From: Patescibacteria group bacterium
Lineage (GTDB): Bacteria; Patescibacteriota; UBA1384; XYA2-FULL-43-10; CAINNR01
Length of the DNA: 64,000 nt
Direction of reading: 5' to 3'
NCBI GenBank assembly: GCA_041651295.1
Contig: JBAZJN010000001.1
Span: 83,662 to 147,661, forward strand
In this document: positions 2 to 50,211 of the stretch, in pieces
Layout of the letters: every line of letters begins with the position of its first letter
Position numbering within the stretch: the stretch's first letter is position 1
Program-made: the position numbers and the translations under genes
The notes under the pieces: model-generated
Databases searched by the model: none
Seen by the model: only the letters and a program-made list of their open reading frames with translations
Told to the model about the DNA's origin: nothing

Positions 2-2338
2 TTTGCGGTTTTTTTTCATCAGTTTAAGAGCCCTCTAGTTTATACTCTGGCGTTGGCATCAATAATATCACTCGTATTCCGAGAATATTCCGATTTTTGG
101 ATCATACTTGCCGTGATTATTATTAACGCATTGATCGGGGCATATCAGGAATATCATGCTGAAAACACTTTTTTGGCATTAAAGAAGATGCTAAAACCAA
201 AAGCCTTGGCGATTAGGGACGGCAAGAGAAAAGAAATATTTGCTTTCGAATTGGTACCGGGGGATATCGTGGTTCTTTCAGCTGGTGATCAAGTTCCTGC
301 GGACGGCAAGCCCCTGGAAGTAACAAATCTCGTCGTTGATGAAAAAATCTTTACCGGCGAGGATGAACCGGTGACCAAGGAATTGGGAGAGAACTCCAAA
401 CTTTTAATGGGGACAAAAGTACTATCGGGTGTCGGAATAATGGAAGTTGTTGGGACAGGAAAAAATACCGAAATCGGGAAAATCAGCCATACACTATCGG
501 AGATTAAAAGAGATGCCACACCATTACAAAAACGCCTGGAGAAATTTGCCAAGAATCTGCTCATCATTATGGTTGTTGTCGCAACTATTATTTTTCTTCT
601 CGGATTGATCCGCGGTGAAGAAATCTGGACAATATTCCGTCTGGCATTAATTTTAGCGGTTGCTTCAATCCCTGAGGGAATACCAATTGCTACGACGGTA
701 ATTATGGCTTTGGGTATGAGACGGATATTAAAACGCAACGGTTTAGTAAAAAATCTGCTATCAGTTGAAACTCTGGGATCAACTTCTGTCATTTGTACTG
801 ACAAAACCGGCACGCTGACTGAGGGAGTAATGGAAGTAGTCCGCACAGACTTTATTGATGAAGAAAAGGCCCATTTATCTATGGTTCTGGCGAATCAGCA
901 GAAAGACGGTCTGGAGATAAGTCTTTGGGAATATGTCAAGACAAAAAGTCCGGTTAAACCCGAGAATCTGTTTGACAAACTGGAAAAAACTTTTGAAGAT
1001 CCGTTTGATAGCGTGAAAAAATACTCTATGGCCGTAGTTCAAAACGGAGATTCGGAAACCGGTTTTATTCTGGGCGCACCGGAGATAGTGCTGGAATACT
1101 GCAAAACCAGCGAAAAAGAAAGCGCAGATATTAGAGCCAAGATCCAAAGTTGGGCCAGAGAGGGACTCAAGGTCGTCGGTGCCGCATATAAGGATCAAGG
1201 CGAAATTAAAAAATTGACAGATTGGAAATGGTTGGGAATTTTAGGCATTGATGACCCGATTCGAGAGGAAGTAAAAGAAACATTAAGTTTGTGCCGTAAA
1301 GCCGGAATCGCAGTAAAAATAGTAACCGGAGATTATAAAGATACTGCAATTGAAGTCGGAAGAAAACTTGGATTTGAGTTTGAAGAAAAAAATGTAGCCG
1401 ACAATAAAGAGCTGGATGCTATGTCCTCGGATGAGCTTGCCAAGAATATCAATGATATTCACATATTTGCCCGAGTCACTCCGGACCAAAAATTAAAGAT
1501 TGTTGAGGCCTTGCAAAAAAATGGCGAAGTTGTAGCTATGACCGGTGACGGCGTAAATGATGTGCTGGCGTTAAAGAAAGCCAACATTGGAGTTGTTGTC
1601 GCAAACGCCACCGACGTGGCGAAAGAGGCTGCCGACTTAGTCCTGCTTGATAGCAATTTCAAAACTATTTATGCCGCTTGCGAAGAAGGCAGGACTATTC
1701 TCTCAAACATTAAAAAGGCTGTCGGATATGCCCTTTCTGATGCCTTTGTCGAGATGATAATTATCTTTTTGGCAGTTTTATTGAACTTTCCTGTTCCAAT
1801 TACTATTGTCATGATTCTCTGGATTAATCTGATTTGCGACGGCCCAAATGACATTTTGCTCGGATTCGAATCAAAGGAGGATGATATCATGGAAATCTCC
1901 CCGAAAGTAATTCAAAAAGAGAGTATTTTTGACCGGCTGATTCTGGCAATTACTGTTACGATCAGTTCCTCCGTGGGAATCCTATCATTAATATATTTCT
2001 GGTATATTCGTAACTCCGGTGGCGACCTAACGTTGGCTAGAACAATAGTATTTACTACAATTGCTCTCGCCAGTTTGGTTTATATTTTCAACTTCAAAAA
2101 TCTGCGAACACCTATCTGGAAAATCAAAAACTTTAGTCAAAATAAATATCTGTTTTGGGGAGTTTCTTCGGGGCTGGTTTTAATTCTGGCAGCAATTTAC
2201 TTGCCGGTTCTGCAAAATGCGTTGGGGACGACACCGCTAAAACTTGCCCATTGGATTCCGGCAATTTTCGTCGGCATAATTTCCGCTCTCTTGGTCGAAA
2301 TCTTAAAATTTTCGCATAAAAATCGCGCTGGTGTTTAG
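2..2338 (+). CDS. P-type cation-transporting ATPase (5' end outside window)
   Basis: Frame open from base 2; DKTGTLTEG phosphorylation motif, TGDGVNDVLALKKANIG hinge motif, several C-terminal TM helices. Confidence 0.92.
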   Translation, partial: FAVFFHQFKSPLVYTLALASIISLVFREYSDFWIILAVIIINALIGAYQEYHAENTFLALKKMLKPKALAIRDGKRKEIFAFELVPGDIVVLSAGDQVPADGKPLEVTNLVVDEKIFTGEDEPVTKELGENSKLLMGTKVLSGVGIMEVVGTGKNTEIGKISHTLSEIKRDATPLQKRLEKFAKNLLIIMVVVATIIFLLGLIRGEEIWTIFRLALILAVASIPEGIPIATTVIMALGMRRILKRNGLVKNLLSVETLGSTSVICTDKTGTLTEGVMEVVRTDFIDEEKAHLSMVLANQQKDGLEISLWEYVKTKSPVKPENLFDKLEKTFEDPFDSVKKYSMAVVQNGDSETGFILGAPEIVLEYCKTSEKESADIRAKIQSWAREGLKVVGAAYKDQGEIKKLTDWKWLGILGIDDPIREEVKETLSLCRKAGIAVKIVTGDYKDTAIEVGRKLGFEFEEKNVADNKELDAMSSDELAKNINDIHIFARVTPDQKLKIVEALQKNGEVVAMTGDGVNDVLALKKANIGVVVANATDVAKEAADLVLLDSNFKTIYAACEEGRTILSNIKKAVGYALSDAFVEMIIIFLAVLLNFPVPITIVMILWINLICDGPNDILLGFESKEDDIMEISPKVIQKESIFDRLILAITVTISSSVGILSLIYFWYIRNSGGDLTLARTIVFTTIALASLVYIFNFKNLRTPIWKIKNFSQNKYLFWGVSSGLVLILAAIYLPVLQNALGTTPLKLAHWIPAIFVGIISALLVEILKFSHKNRAGV

Positions 2339-7985: not shown

Positions 7986-8114
7986 TCAAAAGATGTCGGG
8001 TATCCGGACATTGAAGTCGGAATCGAACCATCGGACTATGGTGCCTAACCCACAGCCGGACTTGGGCGGCTGCAGTTCGCGGCTCTGACCATTATCAGCC
8101 ATGGGAGACATCAT
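7986..8114 (-). CDS. possible 42-aa ORF (cassette A, first ORF)
   Basis: AAAGGGGA then ATGATG; MMSPMADNGQSRELQPPKSGCGLGTIVRWFDSDFNVRIPDIF; weak support. Confidence 0.25.
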   Translation of the reverse strand: MMSPMADNGQSRELQPPKSGCGLGTIVRWFDSDFNVRIPDIF

Positions 8115-8129
8115 CCCCTTTCTGCCGCA

Positions 8130-8158
8130 AGTATAGTACAATATGTTGTTTTTATCAA
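8130..8158 (-). promoter_or_regulatory. sigma70-type promoter of cassette A
   Basis: TTGATA-17-TATACT on the minus strand. Confidence 0.45.
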
Positions 8159-8207
8159 TACCCAACCGGTATTTATTGCCTTACCCGGTAAGACCTCATT
8201 GAAATAG

Positions 8208-8891
8208 TTATCTATCCGAACCGGTAGCCGGTAATACCTGAACGGCAGGTGTTGTCTGCGGTACCACCGGAGGATTTGAAACCAGCATACGCACTTGGGT
8301 CGTTGCCTGATAATCTGCATACGCTCGCGGAAACAATAACTTTTCCCACCAAGCGATAAAAATATCGGCTCCGGTAATAGTTACCGTAGCTAAAATTACA
8401 GTTTGATCAGCGGTTCCAGCGGCGATTCTGCCAGTCATCCCTCCGCTCTGAAAACCCGTCGCGTCAGTTGTGCCATTATCAACTCCATCAAGATAAAATG
8501 ACAAGGTTCCGGCATTCATATCAGGCAATCCGCTAAGTCCATAAAATAATATGGCATCGCCGTCTAAGTCATCTGTACTGCCAGAATCAAAAGCGCTGAG
8601 CGCATCCATGCCCGCCGGATTGGTGTAAACACCGGAATATGCAATATTTATCGCAGGGGTATCACCGGTATCCCAGGTTTTTAGGCGGAAATAAACTGTG
8701 TCTCCCGGCGAAACAGTCAGGGTTTGATTGCCAGAATCAGTTTCTGCCAGATAATTGACCCAAGTTGAGTTGTCTTTTGAAACTTCAAGCCGAGTCAACA
8801 ATGTAGCACCGCCGCTAATAAAACCAGCCGACGCAATACTCGGAAACACAGAGAAAACTACTGCCAATAATGCAATAACAACTTTTTTCAT
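8208..8891 (-). CDS. secreted protein, unknown function
   Basis: Signal peptide MKKVVIALLAVVFSVFPSIASA; beta-rich, Thr/Gly-rich body; no recognised motif. Confidence 0.6.
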   Translation of the reverse strand: MKKVVIALLAVVFSVFPSIASAGFISGGATLLTRLEVSKDNSTWVNYLAETDSGNQTLTVSPGDTVYFRLKTWDTGDTPAINIAYSGVYTNPAGMDALSAFDSGSTDDLDGDAILFYGLSGLPDMNAGTLSFYLDGVDNGTTDATGFQSGGMTGRIAAGTADQTVILATVTITGADIFIAWWEKLLFPRAYADYQATTQVRMLVSNPPVVPQTTPAVQVLPATGSDR

Positions 8892-9141
8892 TGTACCCCC
8901 AAATTAATGATTCTTACGAGTATTATATCATAATAACTAGAATCTTTTCTTGTCCCGTTTCACTACTTTAGCTAGGCTTTTTTCTGCTGCTTTATCAAGA
9001 TCAATTTTGTTCGAATTGGCAAAACAAATGAGCGTATAGAGAATATCACCGATTTCCAGTTCCAAATCTTGTTCGGCTTCACTGGATTTCTTTTTCTTCG
9101 GCCCCCAAATGTGATTAACCAGACGGGCAAACTCACCCGTC

Positions 9142-9399
9142 TCATTTCCCTGTTAAATACGACTTGAGCCGCTTGTACAAAAAAAGTTTACCATGATAAG
9201 TTTTAAGATATTTTTCACGTTTAAGAGCATCACTTCGATTTAAACACGCTTCAGAATAGATTAACTTGAGAGGTCGGCGATCCTTAGTTGAGTCAACTCG
9301 CCCTTTAGTATGTAGATCAAGTCGTGATTTCAAATTATTTGTATAACCTGTATAAAATTGACTATCTAGCTTTGATTGTAGAACATAAATATAGAACAT
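9142..9399 (-). CDS. GIY-YIG nuclease domain protein (85 aa)
   Basis: MFYIYVLQS..FYTGYTNNLKSRLDLH..REKYLK matches the GIY-YIG/URI pattern. Confidence 0.8.
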   Translation of the reverse strand: MFYIYVLQSKLDSQFYTGYTNNLKSRLDLHTKGRVDSTKDRRPLKLIYSEACLNRSDALKREKYLKTYHGKLFLYKRLKSYLTGK

Positions 9400-9427
9400 C
9401 TTTTTGAAATCATTTAACAGGGTGAAC
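9144..9427 (-). mobile_element. minimal GIY-YIG element bounded by 11-bp inverted repeats
   Basis: CCCTGTTAAAT (9148-9158) and ATTTAACAGGG (9412-9422) flank an insert of about 280 bp that carries only the GIY-YIG ORF. Confidence 0.5.
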
Positions 9428-9513
9428 CATTAGCCGGACCATCATTTCATGCGGAGTCCAATACTCCCATTTTTGTGCCTTCATCCATTTGTCGAGTTCT
9501 TTTTGCTGCTTGT

Positions 9514-10119
9514 TCATAGTTCTCCTAGAAAATTTACTAATCTCTTATAATTTTTGTAAATGTGTCCTTGACCACCTTTTTGTTCGAATAATTCGATAGT
9601 TTTTGCAGAATCATCAATTAATAAACTGCTCTCAATATTCGAGGCCAATTTCTCTAAAACAATGTCGAATAACATACCGTCTTCATCATCTTTGTTAAGT
9701 TTGTAATCTGCCGAATTTACAATTAAGTCAAACTTTTCATTCAATTTATAATTTGGAACAGTGATCTCTGAAAAAACATCCATGTTGCCAGTCACAATCG
9801 CAACTTTGCTGCCAGATTCTCGAAATGATTCTGCCAAATTGAGTAATCTTCGATCTAATTTCATCAATCGAACACTCTCTTTATATAATTCAGTAAGTGT
9901 TTTGATACCGATATTATTATTCTTAGCAATAAGCTGGTTTATATCCTTAGACGTAACTTCACCATGCATCCATTTATTAACTAATTCGTGATCGGCAAAG
10001 ATGTTTTTCTGTATCCAATCATAAACCTTCAGGTAATCCTGCAATAAAGTTTTTTCATAAAATCTGTCGTGGCAAAGCACACCATCAAAATCAAAAAGAA
10101 TAGTATCTATTTTTTCCAT
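9514..10119 (-). CDS. HAD-superfamily hydrolase
   Basis: ILFDFDGVL motif I and GNMD/DD motifs; stop overlaps the MazG start (ATGA). Confidence 0.75.
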   Translation of the reverse strand: MEKIDTILFDFDGVLCHDRFYEKTLLQDYLKVYDWIQKNIFADHELVNKWMHGEVTSKDINQLIAKNNNIGIKTLTELYKESVRLMKLDRRLLNLAESFRESGSKVAIVTGNMDVFSEITVPNYKLNEKFDLIVNSADYKLNKDDEDGMLFDIVLEKLASNIESSLLIDDSAKTIELFEQKGGQGHIYKNYKRLVNFLGEL

Positions 10120-11639: not shown

Positions 11640-11704
11640 GTCATTCCCGCGAAAGTGGGAATCTACTAAACTATTCGTGGATCCCCGATCAGGTCGGGGA
11701 TGAC
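11640..11704. repeat. R1 nested-palindromic repeat, copy a
   Basis: GTCATTCCCGCGAAAGTGGGAATCTACTAAACTATTCGTGGATCCCCGATCAGGTCGGGGATGAC; supplies the last codons and stop of the 11689-12735 gene. Confidence 0.8.
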
Positions 11705-12735
11705 TTCGTCATTTCTTTTTTCGGCTCTGATTTATTTTCAACAGTTTTATCTGCTTCGGCTTCTTTTTTCTTCCGGTTTCTTCTGCGAATCAATACTATA
11801 ATCAGAATAATAACTCCGATCCAAAATAGCAACGAAAGTAATGGCCAAAGAATAATCATTATCGGGCTAGAAAAAACATTGGCCAAAAAACCTGCGATGC
11901 CACCGGAATCTTTATTTGCACCATAATCGGCAAGAATTGCGGCAATATCCGGTGTAAATGAGGATTTTGGCGTTGTCGTGGCCGTTCCCGTCGATTTGCT
12001 CGAACTGCCGCTGGTTCCCGATCCGCTGGATGAACTGCCACTTGAACCAGTCGTACCTGACCCACTACTAGATCCGCTACTGGCCACCGGATCGGTCGTT
12101 ATGGCACCAGCAGAACCGGCCGGATTTGTCGTTGAGCCACTATCTGGTGTGCCGGGATCAGCTGCCGAACCGTCGCTGCTTGGATTGTTCGGATCATAAT
12201 AACCATATGTCGCAAACCCATAATCGATAGAATTGAGCCGTGTCCCGTCAATCATTGCGTATCCGGGTGCATAGCATGATGTATTTGTTGTTGCCGACCA
12301 ATAAACCTGGGAGCCATTTTTCGGGACTAAGATAATTGCGTATTCTAATCCCGGATCAATATCTTGCGACGATTCTTCAATGTATTGCCAGTACTCATCA
12401 ATGCGGTTTTCCAAATCAACACTGTGTCTAGCAATCATCTGGTGCGGATTTGAATGCCAATTCCAAATTTGTGCTTCAATTCGAGGCGTTCCGGTTGGAT
12501 TTGTGCCCTTTATACGAACTGATACGGCATTTAGCCAGTTAAAACGAGGTACAAAAACCATCCCTGGTGTTTGGCTGGCCCAAGTGCTAACACCTGAATT
12601 TTGGACTCCATTAACACAGCCCTGATCTGGGTACGACGGGTCAATGGCCGCAACTTTTTCCGTCGCAAAAAATAGAAATGAGTACGCCATTAACAACATC
12701 CCGACAATCGAGATCAATCCAATAACATTTCGCAT
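11689..12735 (-). CDS. surface protein with Ser/Gly/Thr-rich linker and C-terminal TM anchor
   Basis: N-terminal signal anchor, globular domain, SSGSSSGSGTTGSSGSSS linker, TM helix, basic tail; C-terminus lies in repeat R1a. Confidence 0.6.
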   Translation of the reverse strand: MRNVIGLISIVGMLLMAYSFLFFATEKVAAIDPSYPDQGCVNGVQNSGVSTWASQTPGMVFVPRFNWLNAVSVRIKGTNPTGTPRIEAQIWNWHSNPHQMIARHSVDLENRIDEYWQYIEESSQDIDPGLEYAIILVPKNGSQVYWSATTNTSCYAPGYAMIDGTRLNSIDYGFATYGYYDPNNPSSDGSAADPGTPDSGSTTNPAGSAGAITTDPVASSGSSSGSGTTGSSGSSSSGSGTSGSSSKSTGTATTTPKSSFTPDIAAILADYGANKDSGGIAGFLANVFSSPIMIILWPLLSLLFWIGVIILIIVLIRRRNRKKKEAEADKTVENKSEPKKEMTKSSPT

Positions 12736-14333: not shown

Positions 14334-14387
14334 ACAAGAAAATCCCCATGGATTTCTGAGCTCAAATATGATAAATTAAATTAGCAA

Positions 14388-14645
14388 ATGAAATATTTTG
14401 TTTACATGATTGAAAATGCCAAAAGCAGACATTACATCGGCATTACCACCGATCCAAAGAGAAGGCTGGCAGAACACAACAATAGCGGTGCTAAATCAAC
14501 CAAACCATTTGGTCCATGGAAATTAATATACTCTGAGGAATTCGAAAACCGATCCGAGGCTTGCAAAAGAGAGTGGCATTTGAAAAATTCCGTTGGCAAA
14601 AAAGAAAAGTCTGAGATAATTGAAAAATTTGGAAATACCAACTAA
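14388..14645 (+). CDS. GIY-YIG nuclease domain protein (85 aa)
   Basis: KYFVYMIEN..HYIGITTDPKRRLAEHN..REWHLK matches the GIY-YIG pattern. Confidence 0.8.
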   Translation: MKYFVYMIENAKSRHYIGITTDPKRRLAEHNNSGAKSTKPFGPWKLIYSEEFENRSEACKREWHLKNSVGKKEKSEIIEKFGNTN

Positions 14646-14692
14646 ACGACTAGATTGAAATATTAATTTATACTCGCTACAATAGCGTGTAT

Positions 14693-15123: not shown

Positions 15124-15214
15124 GGTGGGATCGCATAGTTGGTCTAGTGCGCACGATTGGAAATCGTGTAGGGTCGCAAGATTCTCGAGGGTTCGAATCC
15201 CTCTCCCACCGCCA
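15124..15214 (+). tRNA. tRNA-Ser (anticodon GGA), CCA encoded
   Basis: Acceptor GGTGGGA/TCCCACC, anticodon stem CACGA/TCGTG with loop TTGGAAA, long variable arm, T-arm GAGGG-TTCGAAT-CCCTC, 3' GCCA. Confidence 0.9.
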
Positions 15215-43094: not shown

Positions 43095-43097
43095 AAT

Positions 43098-43129
43098 GTC
43101 ATCCTCGGGCTTGACCCGGGGATCCCGAC
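43098..43129 (-). repeat. R1 half-element, copy e
   Basis: Reverse complement GTCGGGATCCCCGGGTCAAGCCCGAGGATGAC matches the second half of the ychF copy; encodes the DedA C-terminus SGSPGQARG-stop. Confidence 0.65.
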
Positions 43130-49824: not shown

Positions 49825-50211
49825 GATGTTCACCTCCTTTTAAGCATGATTAATGATCATATTACGAATATATACCCATAATAATTACTTGTCAAGTATT
49901 TAATTTTTTTATCTGGCAGTATTGCAATAATGAGTCTTTCATGGTACTCTTTTGCCGAGCCGCAAGTACCTACACAAGGAGCTGTGACCATGACAACCCT
50001 CGAGGTTGTTGGACTTATTTTGTTAAATGCGCCCTGAGCGCACGATCTAATTGCGCAGCAATGCAATCGTATTTAACAGGATGAATTGACATAATTAACC
50101 TCATTTGCTAAAGTAATCATACAAATTACAAACATTCCCCCGCTTGGGGGCTTCGCCCAAACTCAAGGGATTAACGAAGGCCATAATAATATAATTAGAA
50201 AAGGATTTTTT

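Follow-up and report, generated by a model that had tools for sequence, protein, structure and literature searches.

A 64,000-nucleotide (nt) stretch of the genome of a Patescibacteria group bacterium (contig JBAZJN010000001.1, positions 83,662 to 147,661; this whole stretch is referred to as the window) carries on its minus strand a housekeeping gene for a MazG-like pyrophosphohydrolase that is interrupted by a short DNA segment encoding a GIY-YIG nuclease, which raises the question of what kind of element this segment is and what has become of the gene that it entered. A preliminary description of the locus had proposed a very small DNA element or a homing-endonuclease gene, a proposal now supported by an empty site in related genomes, by terminal inverted repeats (TIRs) found in nearly all other copies of the nuclease gene and by flanks that belong to MazG. 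The insert is probably, although with considerable reservation, a copy of a widespread and minimal homing-type selfish DNA cassette, the nuclease of which would recognise the folded single-stranded DNA (ssDNA) of its own ends and the arrival of which would have knocked out MazG.

The two parts of the interrupted gene are exactly complementary. The 5' part (9427..9517, minus strand) comprises codons 1-30 and the first base of codon 31 and aligns to residues 1-30 of intact orthologues of 99 amino acids (aa), and the 3' part (8937..9145, minus strand) runs from the last two bases of codon 31 through the stop codon, its frame down to 8937 matching the Pfam MazG family (E=1e-12). As annotated, the 5' open reading frame (ORF) continues into the cassette, so that the minus-strand ORF 9517..9410 reads MNKQQKELDKWMKAQKWEYWTPHEMMVRLMVHPVK, that is, 30 MazG-like residues followed by VHPVK, ending as ..MVHPVK at 9410. 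The preliminary description had found no simple in-frame excision product, yet removal of 9426..9146 (281 nt) yields a 300-nt gene for a MazG of 99 aa, exactly the length of the orthologues. The rejoined protein matches PF03819 over positions 2-74 of 74 (tested on a near-equivalent join) and aligns without gaps to 17 orthologues, including the MazG domain with its EExxE metal-binding motif. At the break it reads ..VRLM-D-ETGEF.. compared to ..RL[MF]-E-E[TSG]GE[FL].. in all 17 aligned orthologues; codon 31 is GAT (Asp) in the rejoined gene and GAG in the relatives, the first Glu of the EE pair thus being replaced by Asp. As the 5' part stops within the cassette arm and the 3' part lacks a start codon, MazG is most likely inactivated in the present genome, one of the two outcomes envisaged earlier. 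The other, a MazG made as two pieces, was rejected: the first in-frame start codon of the 3' part is a TTG at 9065, with none before residue ~58, and the EExxE motif would be lost. The ATG of the 5' ORF overlaps the stop codon of a HAD-family hydrolase gene (9514..10119, minus strand) as ATGA, this gene forming the upstream, co-transcribed context together with ASCH and NUDIX genes located further upstream.

A protein search with the joined halves recovered hundreds of uninterrupted MazG proteins of 99-103 aa, the best being 92% identical. The contigs that carry this best match (L081 and L082) are syntenic with the window, showing the end of the HAD gene, MazG with the same ATGA overlap and then a 227-aa gene that is identical to its counterpart in the window at 223 of 228 positions. 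Their MazG is uninterrupted (..TTAATGGAGGAAACTGG..), and the DNA at the empty site reads CGATTAATGGAGGAAACTGGTGAA, compared to CGGCTAATGG[TTCACCC…CAGGGAA]ATGAGACGGGTGAG at the filled site in the window. The rejoined MazG gene and that of L081 are identical at 272 of 300 nt, with 16 synonymous and seven non-synonymous codon differences. Related genomes hence hold a filled allele (the window) and empty alleles (L081, L082 and L083) of one and the same host gene, and the possibility that relatives naturally encode two half-genes does not hold, close relatives having a single intact MazG of 99 aa. Identity to L081 is 77.6% to the left of the element (9640..9427) and 97.4% to the right (9143..8048), the differences in the right flank being concentrated in its first ~40 nt; this jump looks like a co-conversion tract. 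Over a longer distance the window and L081 form a mosaic (97% at 9143-8048, 78% at 9640-9427, 77% at 8055-7699 and 92% at 7716-7447), which suggests frequent recombination among these Patescibacteria strains.

Set against the empty site in L081 and L082, the cassette extends over 9146..9426 (minus strand), running from TTCA and the 5' arm to the 3' arm and AA; these boundaries are accurate to about ±1-2 nt and are not uniform across subfamilies. The 5' terminal arm CCCTGTTAAAT (9412..9422, minus strand; the 5' side of stem A, see below) is preceded by the conserved TTCA (9426..9423), and the 3' terminal arm ATTTAACAGGG (9148..9158, minus strand; the 3' side of stem A) codes for the invariant C-terminal ..YLTG. 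The arms form a perfect 11-bp inverted repeat, as first reported, which grows to 15 bp if TTYA/TRAA are included. The repeat is beyond chance, since these arms recur in 77 of 83 homologous copies elsewhere and since it abuts two further perfect pairings. Between the arms, and occupying 258 of the 281 nt of the insert, lies the GIY-YIG nuclease ORF (9142..9399, minus strand; 85 aa), which retains all residues invariant in the family and matches PF01541 (E=3e-16, positions 1-74 of 78); its product is 100% identical to an NCBI protein entry from a Patescibacteria group bacterium. The element lacks the T with which the TAA/TGA stop usually begins, and the last codon and the TGA stop of this ORF therefore use 4 nt of MazG sequence. 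PF01541 is the sole domain detected and a separate sequence-specific DNA-binding domain is absent, the protein being a bare catalytic domain; searches against NCBIfam and the sequences of the Protein Data Bank (PDB) gave no assignment beyond UPF0213-like GIY-YIG, the closest solved structures being the UPF0213 proteins 1ywl and 1zg2 (E~1e-5). The initial picture of a MazG gene split by a TIR-bounded element of about 280 bp that codes only for a GIY-YIG protein is thus accurate in all its coordinates, and both flanks align to MazG by Pfam as well as by the orthologue alignment. The window contains a single copy of the element. A possible ORF-less miniature or remnant is found at 50015-50085 (minus strand), where TTCA-TCCTGTTAAAT is followed after 42 nt by ATTTAACAaaaTAA; it has an exact match of 14 nt to the main copy and reads as a 25-aa ORF (MSIHPVKYDCIAAQLDRALRAHLTK*). 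A second GIY-YIG ORF of 85 aa (14388-14645, plus strand) is 43% identical and has no CCCTGTTAAAT arms; it is situated within a perfect 9-bp AT-rich inverted repeat (14371-14379 / 14663-14671) and is followed by a 142-aa ORF and a tRNA gene (15124-15211).

The cassette belongs to a family that crosses phylum borders. Its nuclease has 2656 homologous protein clusters, nearly all of 84-85 aa and with an invariant KSYLTG at the C-terminus, and Y5, Y16, R26 and E62 are among the residues invariant in 29 homologues. A scan of species-representative genomes recovered at least 523 loci in Patescibacteria, Desulfobacterota, Bacteroidota, Planctomycetota and others, the best 80 coming from the first three of these, from Scalindua, Ignavibacteria and others; the alignment used for the structure comprises 78 elements. 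In 77 of the 83 copies the final 11 nt before the stop codon are complementary, with at most one mismatch, to an 11-mer located 10-40 nt upstream of the start codon, and the concern that the TIRs might be absent from other copies of the gene is thereby removed. The family end pattern is TTYA-CCCTGTTAAAT … ATTTAACAGGG-stop, and conservation reaches exactly 4 nt beyond each arm (TTYA … TRAA) before it falls to background level. Not one of the best 80 loci is situated in an rRNA gene, the plasmid scan returned only distant YazA-like matches, and the scan of viral contigs only relatives of at most 45% identity without the repeats. The family is widespread and, apparently, undescribed. Some of the homologues P0053, P0061, P0104, P0111 and P0020 are annotated as fusions to PF05635 (23S rRNA intervening-sequence protein) or PF13366 (PDDEXK_3), and others among them begin with an extension in which the 5' arm is translated (FTLLNNLKF); read-through from cassettes inserted in the genes concerned is the probable source of these artefacts. 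In the alignment, the Y of TTYA and the second base of the stop codon (columns 7 and 309) are anti-correlated with pairing: C occurs with A 29 times, T with G 20 times, T with A 13 times and C with G never.

The arms are part of a larger structure that overlaps the coding sequence. In the window, three abutting perfect pairings of 11, 10 and 9 bp (stems A, B and C, all given for the minus strand) are present. Stem A joins the two arms (9422-9412 / 9158-9148), stem B pairs the leader just upstream of the GIY-YIG start with codons ~22-25, which encode ..NLKS.. in the window (9412-9403 / 9334-9325), and stem C pairs codons ~25-28 with codons ~77-80 (9325-9317 / 9167-9159). This three-way junction is conserved family-wide. 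Stem A has 11 pairs, with 97.6% of the cells paired and compensatory changes in six pairs, stem B has nine pairs (9403..9411 / 9326..9334 in the window), eight of which show changes on both sides, and stem C has 11 pairs, five with compensatory changes. Over the whole alignment, pairing amounts to 95.2% of the cells compared to 85.2% in shuffles, and double changes are seen in 19 of 31 pairs (215 cells, compared to 45 in shuffles); none of 500 shuffles matched the observed pairing and covariation values, and control alignments slid by 1-3 columns gave 23-51% pairing. Stem B shows this most clearly: leaders such as TAGCTTGAGG, TTGTTTGAGG, TAATTCAATATT or TCCTTTCAAAT agree in every case with the codons for N-L-K-L and variants of it, amino-acid changes included. 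Third-codon positions are twice as conserved inside the stems as outside (information content 1.26 compared to 0.61, p=4e-5), and stems A and B are predicted unaided by RNAalifold. No Rfam family covers the junction, either in the window or in the 80 loci.

Several features of the junction bear on whether it acts as DNA or as RNA. Non-Watson-Crick cells are rare, with G·U and A·C numbering ~19 and 16 at well-paired positions and 27 and 43 overall; among the mismatches of selected RNA structures, G·U is normally the dominant one. Folding of each strand as ssDNA yields the junction both as minimum free energy structure and as centroid (z=-2.4 and -2.6), compared to z=-0.77 for the RNA fold of a slightly larger piece. 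Stem A is kept in sequence well beyond what pairing needs, and its 4-nt extensions are symmetric at both ends; as the ends are inverted repeats, both strands begin with TTYA-CCCTGTTAAAT. The numbers are small, and together these features favour an ssDNA structure over an RNA structure.

Other insertions of the cassette give evidence of its mobility. Ten copies sit inside genes and split them, each in the sense orientation. Besides MazG in the window, the genes affected encode an IS200-like transposase (L014), an ORF6N protein (L004 and L047), a PDDEXK_3 protein (L013 and L027), RHS proteins (L018 and L021) and a Bro-N protein (L061 and L070), that is, accessory or mobile-element functions and never core functions. 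Removal of the segment from TTYA to the stop codon restores the reading frame in L014, L004/L047, L013/L027 and L018, and also in the window if the missing T of the stop is allowed for, and the PDDEXK_3 domain aligns over positions 2-117 of 117 across the rejoined junction. This boundary rule (a=4, b=3) fits the same five sites and does not fit L061/L070 or L021. No target-site duplication is left after the frame-restoring removal at the five sites; models of a fixed duplication, of 3 nt (TAA) or 1 nt (A), were rejected, as they fit some loci and not the window, L014 or L018. Pairs of elements at the same site are 88-92% identical, compared to 51-73% for their host flanks, and four-fold degenerate sites are identical at 23 of 37 positions in the element compared to 13 of 36 in the host. 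The element is thus younger than the split of the host genes, as in homing.

Most copies are intergenic, and these too mostly point the same way as the adjacent genes (the upstream gene in 48 of 66 cases, the downstream gene in 52 of 73). The ATG of the next gene lies 0-5 nt past the element in 16 of 52 cases and immediately after the stop codon in 11 of 78 copies (p~4e-6), and upstream ORFs often enter the arm and end there (..HPVK*). At L058 (2461-2770) the element is placed exactly between glyA and folD: excision that assumes a 1-nt overlap re-forms an overlapping stop and start (ATGA), and if only TTTA..TAA were taken out the two ORFs would be joined in frame. In a subgroup made up of L031, L041, L045, L049, L052, L066, L076 and L079 the cassette occupies the loop of a larger palindrome with flanks of ~70 nt on each side (AAGGAGCAtAGCGACTATAtttt[element]ttatTATAGTCgCT..CTCCTT), which follows a terminator and precedes different genes (nusA, pilC, rplJ and secE). 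The cassette may target the loops of hairpins resembling repetitive extragenic palindromic (REP) sequences, or move along with them. Extra partial arms stand beside some full elements, as tandem 5' arms in L001 (2435-2500), as a second TTAACAGGGTA 15 nt past the element in L009 (2753-2790) and as a new TTTACCCCGTGGAAT directly after it in L077 (1607-1640), which hints at tandem or abortive insertions. Among other neighbours, a group II intron is found ~400 nt upstream of the element in L055 (281-396 and 2053-2128), and in L075 a tRNA gene (2759-2829) begins 4 nt after it.

We infer that the junction works as DNA, that it is cleaved by the nuclease and that the cassette moves by way of these cuts. 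The cassette is a single-domain GIY-YIG gene of ~84 codons in which the 5' leader, two internal coding stretches and the 3' end are mutually complementary, and either strand, once single-stranded, would fold the whole cassette into a three-way junction, the base of which (TTYA-CCCTGTTAAAT / ATTTAACAGGG-TRA) sits exactly at the boundaries between host and element. The nuclease would recognise this folded ssDNA, as the Ssn nucleases discussed below do their hairpins, and would nick beside the conserved TTYA on each strand, after which host repair or recombination may copy or move the cassette, giving a homing-like spread without target-site duplication. A further step, taken here only as a tentative and on balance doubtful proposition, is to regard the cassette as an autonomous, hairpin-guided ssDNA mobile element of a new class, in which an 84-residue nuclease would recognise the junction formed by either strand of its own 281-nt gene and cut at its base, and which would exit and enter exactly and without duplication. 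It would then be the smallest self-mobilising element known, with recognition site, structure and enzyme residing in the same nucleotides.

Some observations speak against a selfish DNA cassette of this kind. A hydrolytic GIY-YIG enzyme cannot rejoin DNA, and the boundaries vary in some copies, L018 being better described by a=0/1, L061/L070 needing a+b=5 or 8 and L058 looking best with a 1-nt overlap. A second allele of MazG carrying the element was not found, a scan of metagenomes with the junction pattern giving 50 loci, none with MazG. The jump in flank identity could be due to ordinary mosaic recombination or to a strain-chimeric assembly, the comparison of G·U with A·C draws on few mismatches, and the sense orientation of all ten interrupting copies is also predicted by models acting at the RNA level. 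Solo or MITE-like (miniature inverted-repeat transposable element) arms without the gene are not seen, the arm-like motif occurring outside elements at chance frequency only, so that a purely regulatory role of the structure, private to its gene, is possible. Finally, the SRM/NTS hairpins (HGTCWY..RNCYNB) that accompany Ssn genes are present within 500 bp of none of 79 loci.

These points lead to the other explanations of the locus. The junction might act in the mRNA, as a limit on the translation of a harmful nuclease, as a determinant of stability or as an RNase III site that frees the transcript from the host operon mRNA. The 5' leader would bend back onto the coding sequence and the 3' terminus, much as hok-type toxin mRNAs do; the homing-type mobility of the cassette and the loss of MazG would be unaffected. 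The location of stem B, spanning the 10 nt immediately before the start codon, the recovery of stems A and B by RNAalifold and the restriction of the arms to the gene would suit such a role, and as 72% of the neighbouring and all ten interrupted genes are co-oriented with it, the cassette is transcribed with its host. GIY-YIG ORFs are also known from non-intron insertions in rRNA genes of the candidate phyla radiation (CPR), beside intervening-sequence (IVS) elements of the RNase III type (PMC11270868). However, G·U is not in excess over A·C, the RNA fold has an ordinary energy, the sequence conservation of stem A and its symmetric extensions are those expected of a protein or DNA recognition site, and none of 80 loci is situated in an rRNA gene. 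A role in the mRNA is the main rival, although rather unlikely. Another rival is an excision at the RNA level, in which pairing of the TIRs would join the junctions, a host endonuclease would cut and an RtcB-type ligase would rejoin the ends (..CTAATGG | ATGAGACG at 9427/9145 for MazG), leaving MazG functional; this would be a bacterial counterpart of the TIR-triggered "SOS splicing" or of archaeal bulge-helix-bulge introns. Such a removal of DNA transposons from mRNA, driven by TIR pairing, exists in animals (PMC12779559), and the frame-restoring boundaries here and in four other interrupted genes, the co-orientation of all interrupted genes and the open state of both host-gene halves in the diverged pairs L004/L047 and L013/L027 would all agree with it. 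Nevertheless, most copies are intergenic and do not need splicing, the interrupted genes are accessory or mobile and never core, and the open halves are explained by recent insertion, as the synonymous sites of the element are younger than those of the host. Tolerance of G·U is lacking, neither a bulge-helix-bulge geometry nor an extended pairing of the MazG flanks is evident in the fold or by eye, and there is no ribozyme match. We regard excision of the RNA as very unlikely.

A self-splicing intron (group I or group II) that carries an endonuclease ORF is effectively refuted, even though group I introns classically harbour GIY-YIG ORFs and the insert lies within a gene and in its orientation. 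The ORF takes up nearly the entire insert, the conserved structure, a plain three-way junction, lacks a ribozyme core and most members of the family are intergenic. No intron family was detected in Rfam at the gathering score over the whole window or at E<=10 over 8900-9600 (three weak chance matches to unrelated families), which bears out the original view that this is not a group I intron. An assembly artefact, for instance a chimera in which two strains or loci were fused at a repeat, is in turn scarcely credible. The contig is metagenome-assembled and the identity of its flanks to L081 differs sharply (77.6% and 97.4%), but these flanks complement each other exactly to form one MazG, with order, orientation and phase all correct, so that any strains joined in this way must both have carried the element at this site. 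Moreover, the window holds a single copy of the element, and similar insertions occur in independent assemblies.

If the reading as a selfish cassette with a nuclease specific for its own folded DNA is correct, it would have several consequences. A complete mobile unit would be possible at ~280 bp, with the nuclease gene serving as its own recognition structure. Across phyla, one set of bases would be under selection both for the protein and for the DNA fold. The cassette would also tie the Ssn ssDNA nucleases to actual mobility, which their authors suspected only from a gene layout resembling that of insertion sequences (IS), and a concrete candidate would be at hand for the unexplained GIY-YIG insertions in CPR genomes. 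Such pairs of enzyme and structure would also represent compact and programmable ssDNA cutters and, if autonomy were shown, the cassette could define a new class of minimal mobile element. For genome annotation, split genes and odd C-terminal "..HPVK*" tails near small GIY-YIG genes can be taken as cassette insertions. Elsewhere in the window, which has ~40% GC, there are GC-rich patches (up to 58% GC) at ~7.4-8.2, 11.0-11.6, 13.4-14.3 and 44-46 kb, with many overlapping ORFs on both strands.

Among known systems, the cassette is best read as related in kind to the Ssn ssDNA nucleases (SsnA of Neisseria meningitidis; Chenal et al. 2025). These are GIY-YIG proteins with a single domain, encoded by genes that stand between NTS/SRM hairpin repeats (PMC11893778). 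The Ssn enzymes bind their hairpin only as ssDNA and act on neither RNA nor double-stranded DNA, cut a few nt 5' of the hairpin, need conserved bases just outside the stem and still work with the hairpin split into two strands with long extensions (PMC11893778). The cassette likewise encodes a single-domain GIY-YIG protein (84-85 aa, thus below ~150 aa, with only PF01541 found; both kinds are of ~85-95 aa) with the same catalytic Tyr/Tyr/Glu spacing (Y5/Y16/E62 compared to Y6/Y17/E64 in SsnA), its gene is bracketed by inverted-repeat DNA in an IS-like layout, and conserved bases are placed just 5' of the paired region with one base 3' of it. The split hairpin with a long loop insert that the published enzyme tolerates corresponds to the geometry of the cassette. 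Unlike in Ssn, the hairpin halves flank the gene, which itself forms the loop, two extra pairings within the ORF give rise to a three-way junction, and solo copies of the repeat are absent from the genomes that carry the cassette. Insertion polymorphism is observed for the cassette, whereas it was only hypothesised for Ssn (PMC11893778). Three matches resembling the Ssn SRM hairpin are present in the window, at 43097-43127 (plus strand), 11677-11705 (minus strand) and 881-908 (minus strand; e.g. AGTCATCCCCGACCTGATCGGGGATCCAC), compared to 0.15 expected from shuffles; none adjoins a GIY-YIG gene, and the present genome may also host a canonical Ssn/SRM system.

The cassette also shares features with free-standing GIY-YIG homing genes of phages (Seg and relatives of I-TevI) and with "genes in pieces", in that a nuclease gene inserts in or between host genes, filled and empty alleles occur in close relatives, and the same site is filled in diverged homologues; a co-conversion of the flanks may be a further parallel. 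Seg proteins and relatives of I-TevI are proteins of ~200-250 aa with a separate DNA-binding domain, and their genes are without terminal inverted repeats. The cassette, in contrast, combines a bare catalytic domain of 84 aa with conserved TIRs and a junction fold, and is not phage-borne. Classical IS and MITE elements have in common with it the terminal inverted repeats, although its sole ORF is GIY-YIG and a DDE, HUH, serine or tyrosine transposase is absent, and the IVS elements of rRNA genes, excised by RNase III, share its terminal stem, in a context where no cassette is located (0/80). Elements of the IS200/IS605 and REP/RAYT type are similarly small, have ends recognised as folded ssDNA, insert with an orientation bias and leave no target duplication; they rely on an HUH tyrosine transposase with a covalent intermediate and on a separate subterminal hairpin at each end, unlike the cassette with its hydrolytic nuclease and one long-range junction joining both ends. 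The GIY-YIG insertions in CPR rRNA genes, which are neither group I nor group II introns and which, in the judgement of Tsurumaki et al. (2024, PMC11270868), spread by routes other than classical homing, resemble the cassette in host clade, protein superfamily, non-intron nature and scatter over poorly conserved sites; they differ in their rRNA location (0/80 for the cassette), and terminal repeats or structure are not described there (PMC11270868). In SOS splicing, as potentially here, pairing of the TIRs would bring the junctions together and permit exact removal, but that process is known only in animals, acts at the RNA level and depends on RTCB (PMC12779559). The literature search, in which the Ssn work (PMC11893778), the survey of CPR rRNA insertions (PMC11270868) and the TIR-triggered RNA excision in animals (PMC12779559) were the related studies, turned up no GIY-YIG gene nested in a conserved three-way junction and no insertion polymorphism of such a gene.

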